Assembly: GCF_002105155.1 (NCBI RefSeq)
Contig: NW_019029004.1
Span: forward strand, 496,001 to 560,000
Direction of reading: 5' to 3'
Length of the DNA stretch: 64,000 nucleotides
Source of the DNA: Lobosporangium transversale
Taxonomy: Eukaryota
The translations under genes and the position numbers were made by a program. Below the pieces are notes generated by a model. That model was not told where the DNA came from, did no database searches, and saw only the letters and a program-made list of their open reading frames with translations. Below, in pieces: positions 12,615 to 16,414 of this stretch. The stretch's first letter is position 1; every line of letters begins with the position of its first letter.

Positions 12615-12650
12615 ATGAAAGTGAAAGTGAAAAGTAAGTGCAAGCAGTTC

Positions 12651-12684
<34 letters not shown>

Positions 12685-13297
12685 CCTTATACGAGAGTTC
12701 TATTATTGATACAATGACCTTGTATCCTTTTTTTCTCATATTTCCTAGAGTACTATAAACAAGACAGAAGGGCAGTCGAGGATACTTGAACACAAAGTAT
12801 ACTTTGGTTACTTACAAGTTTCGTATCAATTTAATTTTAGATGGCACACTGTCGCGATTTGGCAATGGGATATGGAGGATTCGACAGATCTTTGTGGTAT
12901 TTGCCATGGACCTTTTGATTCGTGTTGCCCAGATTGCAGGATTCCAGGAGATAATTGTCCTTTGTGTAAGTCAATAAAAAAAAGTCTTTTTTTTCCTATT
13001 ATTTTCTTGACCTTCTGGATATTGTAGCAAAGTAGGTACATACAGATATAAACGTGGCGATACTCTGTTTCAATTGAGAATAGTATGGGGAAAATGTACA
13101 CATTGCTTCCATCTCCATTGTATCAACAAATGGATTGAGACCAATGATAGTGAAGGAACCTGTCCCATGGACAGACAGATATTCGGTAACCCAAAAAAAA
13201 AAAAATATATCCAGTTTTTATTATCATTAATACTGTTATTATTTCACCTAACGATAATTAATTTGCTCCGCAATTTTTATTAGAGGCCGCTACATAA
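12615..13297 (+). CDS. APC11: Anaphase-promoting complex subunit 11 (RING-H2)
   Basis: Exons 12615-12633, 12749 (1 nt, predicted), 12841-12965, 13084-13185 and 13284-13297 give MKVKVKKWHTVAIWQWD...CGICHGPFDSCCPDCRIPGDNCPLLWGKCTHCFHLHCINKW...CPMDRQ. Confidence 0.93.
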
Positions 13298-13397: not shown

Positions 13398-14848
13398 CTA
13401 TAATGAAATACCTTTGACATGTCTTAAAAACCAGTTTGCAGCTTTGTCGCTTCTAATAAAATCAAGAGCTTCATTAAGGCGTCTAAGCGTAAGCTCCAAG
13501 GGAGGTTGTTGTGAGATAAGGGGTGGTTCAAAGATCGGTGTGCTCCTCTTAAAGTCGAGATGATCGTCTCGTTTAAATGTCGCAAAAAGGGATAGATTTT
13601 CTACTTCCCCATTTTGCTCATCGATTCTATTGTCATTATCATTGTCAATGTCATTGCCATTGTTATTGTCACATTCCTTTCTAATACAAGAAGAGACTTT
13701 AACCTGATATATGACTCTGTTGCGTATTGTGTTGCACATATCCCACAATGTACTCCAGTCCCAACCACTATTCAATAACAGCAGTCTCTGACAAATCTTG
13801 ATCCATTCATTTTCATCCATTGACTCCTTCAAGTGATCAATAGATCTTTCTACTTCCTCCAAATCTGAACAGATTGAGCCCAACAGCAGATCCAGGTTTG
13901 ATCCATTACACCAGTTATGGTTAATAGAGATCGTATCGCCAATGTTGTGTACTTGATGCCACCATCCTGAAGGAACAAACACAGTCTGTCCTGGCTGCTG
14001 ATAGGTTGTAAACCGTTTCGCCTTATGAAAGTTGGGGAACTGAACTGGATTGACATTTTCTATATCATAAACCATGTTATTGAGTTTGTCACAATACAGA
14101 TGTTCTTGATCTGGAGGAAAAAACGTCCATTTTTTGATCCCACAGATATTAGCCGACCATGAATAGGATCTTTTTTTTTGTGATGGAGAAATCAAAACAA
14201 AAACATAAAGTCAGAGCGGAGGGGTATACATCTTGGTCCAACATAATACCATCGTTTTTTTTTTTTTTTTTTTTTTTTTTGGTTTCCTCACCTATAAACA
14301 TCTGCATGGAACGGTGTGAATGTGTTGTCACCTCCACAATAGACAAATCGATAGTCATCATCCATATCCAATCGTCGCGTCCAAAATTCGTTCATCCAGT
14401 CATCCCGAAAAATGTCAGGTGTCTCATACGCATGATACCATGGAAATGTTTTCAGAAAATGAAAGTCCTTGAGATATATCCTTGAAGGTTGATTCTGTTT
14501 ACTATTCAATTCCCACTGCTCCAGAAACTCGCGTAGATCCATGGTTGATCGCTTTTGATCCGTGAATTCTTTGATCTGACAGTCTGCAACAGGGACTAGA
14601 ATCGAGACTGGTTGACCTTCTTCTTCACAGAGCTGCTCTCGCAGACCTGCAAAATTTGGCTTGCCAGTCTCGGGGCAGACCCATTGCTGACGGGCTCGCC
14701 AATGTTTCGTCAGATCAGGTCCAATGACAACAGGCAGATTGGGTTCGAGGTATCGATTGCGAAATTCCTCGTAGGAGGGTGATGTCTCGAGGTAATCAAT
14801 TCCCTGAATAGAAGAATAATTGCGTGGGCGCAGAGGAGGCGTAGGCAT
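13398..14848 (-). CDS. JMJD4: JmjC 2-oxoglutarate/Fe(II) oxygenase, JMJD4-like
   Basis: Exons 14848-14292 and 14169-13398. Motifs YLKDFH, DDYRFVYCG..TFTPFHADVYRSYSWSANICGIKKW, FVPSGWWHQVHN, ISINHNW. Confidence 0.9.
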
Positions 14849-15045
14849 GGTTCTATACAGTGGCTAAGTCAGCATTGAGGGGGGTTTTTTTTCTAGATCT
14901 TTTCAGAAAGGACAAATACGAGTGTTAGTGAGGGACTGTTTACAGTTTTCTATCAGTTTCTGTTACCCTCTGCAACTTTAGCTCCATTCTCTTCTTTATT
15001 GTTATTTAGCCTTCATTACATTCATACAATCTATCATATTTCACC

Positions 15046-16414
15046 ATGCCAGTCTGCACACACCGTGGTTGCGAAAAGACCTACGATGAGGCAACCAACT
15101 CGGATACTGCTTGCCAGTTCCATCCTCAGGGGCCCATCTTCCATGAAGGTCTTAAAGGCTGGTCATGTTGCTCAAAGAGAGTCGTTTCGTTTGATCAGTT
15201 TCTCGCCATCCCCGGCTGCTCATTCGGACGACACACAGATGCACCACGCGAGGAGTTCCCTGCTGCATCTCCAAGCGAGAAAGTTGAGGTTACCGATTCA
15301 ACTACGCCAGCACCAGTGTCTGTAAATAAGGATGGAACAGAAGTTTATGGCTCGTCAGCAGCAGCACCAGCAGCCCCTGCTCCCCTCGTTGCCCCTGCTG
15401 CCTCCACAACAGCATCAGCAGCAGCGCCTTCAGCACCAACACCAGAGCCCATCGTAGAAGAAGAAGATGATCTGTCAATTCCTGTGGCTGTTGGAAAGAC
15501 TTGCATGCGCCGTGGATGCGGTCAGACTTATGTTTCGGAAGAAGAGTCTCGTGGTGATAAAGTCAAGTGTCAGTATCATCCTGGAACGCCCGTTTTCCAT
15601 GAAGGATCCAAGGGCTGGAGCTGCTGTTCCCGTAAGGTGCTGGAGTTTGATGAATTTTTGAAGCTTAAAGGGTGCACCACCACAAACCAGCATTTGTTTG
15701 TTGGTGCAAAGGTAATTTTTTTTTTTAAACTGCATTACTTGGTGGCGTTTTCTATATTGAAATGACTGTGTCAACTAACAGCTCTGATATTTTATCGGAT
15801 TTGCTTTAACAGAAGGAGAAGGTTGAAGAATTGGTTCAGTGCCGTCATGACTGGTATGTCAAACACTTGACTAGAGCACAGATCACTCTGTATTAAGTAC
15901 TGAATATTCGATTTTGGTACTCAATGTATACAAATATGATATTTTGTTCAATCAGGTACCAAACACAGACGCATGTTAACTTGTCTATCTTTGCAAAGAA
16001 GGTCGATCCAAAGACCGCCGTCATAGAATTCAAGGAGCGTGAGGTAATAAGCTCGTATATGGATTTTTATGGTCAATTGTCCAAATAAGCAAGTTGTATA
16101 GCTTTATATTTATAATATGGTCTTTCGTCGTAACCAATTAGGTCAACATTGATTTGAAAATGCCAGATGAAAAGCGTTTCAAGCTCAACCTACCACTTTT
16201 TCAGCCAATTGATCCTTCTGGAAGCTCGTTTGAGGTTCTTGGTACCAAGGTCGAAATCACGATGAAGAAAGGCAATGGCATTTCGTGGGCAACATTAGAG
16301 CCAAGTGAAGGCGCCAAGTGCTGGACAACTTTTGGAACCACTGGTGGTGCTGGTACTGTTGGTAGTAAGGTCATGCATCTTGCCACAGATTCACCACTCT
16401 ATGCCCAGAAGTAG
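15046..16414 (+). CDS. CHORDC1: CHORD-CHORD-CS Hsp90 co-chaperone (CHORDC1/Chp1-like)
   Basis: Exons 15046-15711, 15813-15853, 15956-16043 and 16142-16414. Two CHORD domains (CxxxGC...CxxHP..PxFHEGxKGWSCC...F..F....GC..H) followed by a CS domain (RHDWYQT...KVEITMKK). Confidence 0.92.

Follow-up and report, generated by a model that had tools for sequence, protein, structure and literature searches.

One-base exons have been described in two plant genes, APC11 and VPS55 (PMC4674806, PMC8831610). For the Arabidopsis APC11 gene, At3g05870, Guo and Liu (2015) proved by mutagenesis the existence of an A exon located 333 nt into a 422-nt interval (PMC4674806); the original prediction for the DNA discussed here had pointed to this exon, and rightly. 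Yu et al. (2022) concluded that the APC11 exon arose in early plants (their cluster 1), the main text of their article having no occurrence of 'fungi' (PMC8831610), and the MEPDB article cites the APC11 one-base exon for Arabidopsis only (PMC12409088). Nelson and Syed (2026) described a one-base exon in the Fusarium gene CYP621A, regarded it as the first of any fungal gene and proposed that it had a recent origin by rescue (PMC12940212). Our literature search, thin on subscription papers, found no APC11 one-base exon outside plants. The novelty of the present case is therefore a predicted APC11 one-base exon in a fungus, one-base exons themselves being already known.

The window, a stretch of 64 kb from Lobosporangium transversale, contains on its plus strand a gene that had been called APC11. 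This call is borne out by profile and structure searches: human APC11 (E 1.4e-10), and not RBX1 or RBX2 (E 1.6e-3 for RBX2), is the best match in the PDB, and both large exons match the Pfam zf-ANAPC11 model above its curated cut-off of 25 bits (35.6 and 57.5 bits). The first coding exon (12615..12633, 19 nt) supplies six codons and the first base of codon 7, and is followed by a phase-1 intron of 115 nt (12634..12748, GTAAGT...TAG), in which a long T run and a pyrimidine tract lie ahead of the acceptor TAG ending at 12748. The predicted one-base exon, an A at 12749, would be the middle base of codon 7 (predicted Lys). It is succeeded by a phase-2 intron of 91 nt (12750..12840, GTACTA...TAG, with the acceptor AG at 12839-12840) and by exon 3 (12841..12965, 125 nt), which carries the last base of codon 7, Trp8 and the first half of the RING-H2 finger (zf-ANAPC11 E 9.6e-9). 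The third intron (12966..13083, 118 nt) separates this from exon 4 (13084..13185, 102 nt), bearing the second half of the finger (zf-ANAPC11 E 1.4e-15), and a fourth intron (13186..13283, 98 nt) precedes the coding part of exon 5 (13284..13297, 14 nt with the stop codon). With A12749 included, the full model has five exons, 261 nt and 86 amino acids, and its four introns are all of the GT-AG type. In a phylogenetic tree the protein groups with those of the Mortierellaceae (96/99), a set joined in the tree by a single long branch from elsewhere, Coelomomyces. An Sm/LSM-domain gene on the minus strand (11218-12320; Pfam LSM, E 1e-6), likely SmE, is arranged head to head with APC11; the two start codons are about 300 bp apart, and the arrangement is kept in another fungal locus, L005 (997-2000). 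Downstream of APC11, a JmjC/cupin gene and then a CHORD gene follow in the same order in the window (13398-15765) and in L005 (3000-5123).

The case for the one-base exon begins with the reading frame. In the alignment with human APC11 (E 1.4e-10) the Trp encoded at 12842 falls on Trp8, and 21 nt are accordingly needed upstream of its codon, whereas the large exons on either side supply 20 (19 nt from exon 1 and 1 nt ahead of Trp8). This mismatch, the location of A12749 and the lengths of the two introns around it are all as originally predicted, as is the manner in which this base would restore the frame: it is preceded by an AG that closes a pyrimidine tract, it is followed by a GT, and it supplies exactly the missing base. 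A12749 is hence both flanked by two GT-AG introns and needed for the reading frame. Counting both strands, the 64-kb window has 36 instances of YAG-N-GTA, against 31 expected. Of 300 dinucleotide shuffles applied to the 207-nt gap between the large exons, 9% contained this motif and 14% its looser form HAG-N-GTR. The motif thus offers modest evidence alone, and it is the need for a frame-restoring base, together with conservation, that carries the argument. The donor after the micro-exon, GTACTA, fits the U1 consensus poorly, which counts against the exon. The gap also contains two weaker sites that went unmentioned in the original prediction, A12696, which has a purine-preceded AG and the donor GTTCTA, and G12771, which has an AAG acceptor and a GC donor; these could be a source of minor isoforms. 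No AG-G-GT is present in the 207-nt gap. On the frame and the comparative data presented below, we are highly confident that A12749 is a real one-base exon of APC11, and it is most likely constitutive, giving the middle base of codon 7.

We also considered a stwintron. In a stwintron, removal of an inner intron rebuilds a splice site of the outer one and no base is kept in the mRNA. This structure was rejected, as removal of the whole of 12634-12840 leaves the frame 1 base short, and as both introns own complete GT and AG ends.

For comparison, APC11 loci and proteins were gathered; word-based protein searches with the 41-aa exon gave no matches, and a profile search did. The loci come from metagenome contigs and comprise 80 of 355 matches; all locus counts given here hold among the matches listed. 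The locus L005 is syntenic with the window, with the Sm-domain gene upstream and the JmjC and CHORD genes downstream, and its APC11 groups with that of Mortierella sp. GBAus27b (100/100) inside the Mortierellaceae. Its layout consists of 19 coding nt, an intron of 112 nt, an A, an intron of 126 nt with a GTAAG donor, and 1 nt before the Trp. An AG-N-GT in an orthologous fungal intron, which the original prediction had proposed to look for, is thus present as AG-A-GT in this one fungal locus besides the window. Aligned directly, the introns of L005 and of the window fail to bring the two micro-exons into register, having diverged save for a branch-like block of 8 nt, identical in both, about 25 nt upstream of the acceptor of intron 2.

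This second fungal locus bears directly on the suggestion that the assembly has lost one A from the run at 12630-12633, the gene having a single ordinary phase-2 intron. The window is indeed homopolymer-rich, and the mature mRNA would be identical to that of the micro-exon model. However, L005 has the same mismatch with no A-run at the end of its exon 1, which a miscounted homopolymer in the window would leave unaccounted for. Moreover, public models from other Mortierellaceae read through the phase-1 donor (P0124, P0270) and through the phase-2 acceptor (P0124, P0152, P0156, P0159, P0273). We assign this explanation a minute probability.

It had further been claimed that standard annotation would get this gene wrong, and the public models agree. 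Lys7 is found in none of 16 Mortierellaceae models, and 12 of them have a distorted N-terminus: two use a donor four bases downstream (+4), eight read through or re-route an intron, and two are truncated. The other four, namely P0272, from L. transversale and identical to our 86-aa model save at residue 7, and three related Mortierellaceae models (P0160, P0271, P0157), have the correct length with Arg7. Taking the G of the donor GT or of the acceptor AG into the exon reproduces Arg7 exactly, and Arg7 in these models is probably an annotation artefact with a borrowed G. The model P0155 ends in Glu-Trp, the mark left by joining at the micro-exon donor; P0044 and P0066 bear this mark too, and in them it matches the micro-exon site of the plant locus L010 over nine residues. 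Models from the Neocallimastigomycota, the anaerobic gut fungi, have truncated or re-routed N-termini around codon 7 (P0163, P0282, P0287), and these organisms may hide the same exon.

A reading in which Arg7 is genuine needs a G as the middle base, furnished either by a one-base G exon at 12771 whose donor is GC, or by a non-canonical shift of a splice site by one base. An AG-G-GC site does exist at 12769-12773, and the four Arg7 models, set beside the lack of Lys7 in all 16, speak for such a base. Against this, a forced one-intron model that borrows the G of GT or AG yields Arg7 as well, the acceptor of G12771 is purine-rich, and its GC donor is far from consensus. A transcript-genome pair from a moss-like gene (the label is inferred) is also informative. 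L022 is a spliced transcript that aligns to the genomic locus L045 in five blocks; position 712 of L022, an A, is the sole base between the exon-1 block and the next, and the corresponding gap in L045 holds CAG-A-GTAAG. The pair shows, in one case, that the approach is valid and that the true base was that of AG-A-GT and not a borrowed G. The chance that the middle base in the window is a G is, in our estimate, very slim.

The two models with the +4 donor, P0003 and P0151 from Linnemannia, embody another alternative, in which there is no micro-exon and a single intron of 203 nt starts from 12638, adding one residue before the Trp. Such an intron would be in frame and canonical (GT-AG), and a GT four bases downstream is also present in L005 and in L015, a locus from a non-plant eukaryote. 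The length of the N-terminus argues otherwise. All 42 loci without an intron before the anchor residue have seven residues ahead of it, among the matches listed, and so do 110 of 113 stored proteins with a scorable N-terminus, the exceptions being one protein with a longer stretch and two with eight residues, which are the Linnemannia models themselves; seven residues thus appear fixed, with eight in none of the 42 intron-free loci (among the matches listed). In addition, the +4 donor must beat a perfect GTAAGT four bases upstream, the resulting intron would be about twice the length of the gene's other introns (98 and 118 nt), and the internal pyrimidine-tract acceptor and its conservation would be left unexplained. 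Finally, L070, a second locus from a non-plant eukaryote, and the plant loci lack such a GT and yet have the same mismatch. We therefore judge this alternative very improbable, and return to A12749 as the missing base.

The plant counterpart was located in L020, an Arabidopsis locus that matches the forward primer and the mutagenesis primer flanks of Guo and Liu (PMC4674806). It reads 19 nt, an intron of 332 nt, an A, an intron of 89 nt, one base and the Trp, and this spacing puts the A second in codon 7, just where A12749 lies in the window. Hence the comparison of codon positions that had been proposed gives the same answer on both sides, the exon following 19 coding nt and being followed by a single base before Trp8. 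The predicted exon of the window and that of land-plant APC11 share the gene, the codon, the phase (19/1/1 and then Trp8), the base A, the two GT-AG introns and the fact of having been missed by annotation. They differ in the introns (115 and 91 nt in the window, 332 and 89 in Arabidopsis), in codon 7 (predicted Lys in the window, Gln in L020), and in the nature of the evidence: the Arabidopsis exon has been proven by mutagenesis, whereas that of the window is predicted from sequence.

Among the matches listed, an intron before Trp8 occurs in 38 loci, of which 30 include exon 1; the eight that do not (L013, L016, L038, L040, L043, L058, L071, L074) were left out of the counts. A phase-1 donor combined with a phase-2 acceptor is found in 26 of these 30 (among the matches listed): 23 land-plant-like loci, which are partly redundant, together with L005, L015 and L070. 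An exon 1 of 19 coding nt is common to L005, L015, L020, L070 and 22 further loci, and all 26 mismatched gaps contain an HAG-N-GTR at least 30 nt from both ends (both among the matches listed). The third introns of the same genes served as a control, from which L049 was excluded, its exon 4 falling outside the locus, and in which the 2200-nt intron of L054 may be mis-delimited. The strict YAG-N-GTA is present in 13 of 17 representative gaps (the window included) versus 2 of 17 third introns. For the loose HAG-N-GTR the figures are 17 of 17 and 10 of 17, and with so many control introns positive the long plant introns add little statistically; in the short-intron non-plant genes the loose motif is found in 4/4 gaps and 0/4 third introns. 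In L015 the gap of 73 nt resolves into 37 + 1 + 35 nt, beside a third intron of 42 nt, and in L070 the gap of 185 nt resolves into 92 + 1 + 92, with CTAAC, resembling a branch site, some 40 nt ahead of the AG in each intron. The micro-exon base is A in plants and fungi and G in L015 and L070. These two loci fall outside the green-plant clade (99/95) and outside the Mortierellaceae, in a tree of 73 columns whose unsettled bootstraps support no further placement.

Some observations concern the surroundings of these two loci. L070 comes from a GC-rich eukaryote, and its neighboring gene (2-857, minus strand) weakly matches Njmu-R1 over two consecutive exons, with E values of 9e-5 and 0.02 that miss the Pfam cut-off, a resemblance that does not settle the lineage. 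Beside APC11 in L015 (79-1226, minus strand) is a family-4 glycosyltransferase gene in two overlapping frames, for which a small intron, a frameshift or a fault of assembly would account; the clusters that resemble it in the Atlas are bacterial and phage ones. Searching the Atlas with the genes beside APC11 assigned neither locus to a lineage. Scans of viral contigs yielded three proteins, none of them APC11, and no pattern match, and among prokaryotic genomes none of 21 candidates was APC11.

The four remaining loci (among the matches listed) have one intron each, in frame. An intron at position 20 stands alone in L004 (142-240), which is 81-82% identical to Glomeromycota proteins, and an intron at position 19 stands alone in the animal-like L014 (591-1535) and L026 (599-801) and in the protist-like L063 (2290-2501). 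If compared alone, the two positions would resemble one-base intron sliding. The donor of the third intron is at the same position in plant-, fungus- and animal-like loci and in L015 and L070. Signatures of read-through at the phase-2 acceptor, informative for the acceptor side only, were found in models from Syncephalis, Racocetra, Cetraspora and Chrysoparadoxa. The acceptor ahead of Trp8 that is read through in animal-like ORFs is of phase 2 or of phase 1 (P0014 and P0233 versus P0016 and P0174), and some animals may keep the other intron or both.

Taken together, the identical micro-exon positions, the reciprocal single-intron states and the shared third intron, seen under thin taxon sampling, suggest that the APC11 one-base exon may predate the divergence of plants and fungi. 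We put the probability at roughly 0.7 that the exon is real and was inherited from the plant-fungal common ancestor, being the same as the land-plant APC11 exon; its common descent is inferred from intron positions. A competing account accepts the exon and has it arise independently in plants, Mortierellaceae and the two protists represented by L015 and L070 from one old intron in codon 7, for example where a base at the boundary was lost and a cryptic AG-N-GT supplied the rescue. Just such a rescue route has been proposed for Fusarium CYP621A (Nelson and Syed 2026, PMC12940212), long introns commonly hold AG-N-GT sites, and, according to Yu et al., land plants share very few of their microexons with algae (PMC8831610). 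The occurrence of A in plants and fungi and G in the protists also points in this direction, but this difference simply tracks residue 7, a variable position. Independent origin further requires the same rare event three or four times at one codon of an essential gene, whereas both intron positions are found separately in other lineages, as reciprocal loss predicts; and the third intron common to these lineages indicates that APC11 keeps old introns. We consider independent origin unlikely, though it deserves more weight than the other alternatives.

Under common descent, both introns would have been present in the plant-fungal ancestor, and later one of them would have been lost in some lineages (the Glomeromycota-like and animal-like loci) and both in others. 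It appears likely to us that the pair is a relic of early eukaryotes, the splicing of two introns one base apart having continued unbroken from the plant-fungal ancestor onwards, and that the apparent sliding between the animal-like and the Glomeromycota-like states is reciprocal loss. The situation recalls the near intron pairs of Drosophila (PMC2891723), in which intron positions of orthologous genes differ slightly between lineages; here they are one base apart (19 in L014, L026 and L063; 20 in L004). That framework holds the coexistence of two such introns to be very unlikely (PMC2891723), whereas here both coexist in 26 loci among the matches listed and in the window.

As the spliceosome cannot sit on both sides of one base at once, the two introns would have to be removed sequentially, as Guo and Liu argued for the Arabidopsis exon (PMC4674806). 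In the window, intron definition would apply to each of the two short introns, and they would be excised in succession. The downstream intron would probably go first, whereupon the A would become the first base of an ordinary exon of 126 nt. Guo and Liu cite a downstream-first order for potato invertase (PMC4674806), and Yu et al. describe upstream-intron retention at the VPS55 one-base exon and, in moss, an isoform in which a larger exon ends with the base (PMC8831610). Skipping of A12749 gives a frameshifted product of 99 codons without the RING finger, with its stop beyond the last junction, and since skipping destroys the finger, inclusion should be strongly selected.

The predicted exon is also like that of Fusarium CYP621A in being fungal, in forming the middle base of a codon, in bridging a phase-1/phase-2 mismatch and in its conserved AG-N-GT; the Fusarium exon differs in being in an unrelated gene, limited to one fungal group, a G, and supported by reads (PMC12940212). 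For the Mortierellaceae, the one-base exon explains the distorted N-termini of 12 of the 16 public APC11 models and suggests that Arg7 is wrong in the other four. A fungal gene with such short introns would also be well suited to testing the order of splicing around a one-base exon. If our reading is true, the origin of the best-studied one-base exon would move from early land plants, where Yu et al. (2022) placed it, to before the plant-fungal split. It would also clearly contradict the working assumption that a gene does not hold two introns only a few bases apart, an assumption that underlies both the use of near intron pairs as markers and claims of one-base intron sliding.
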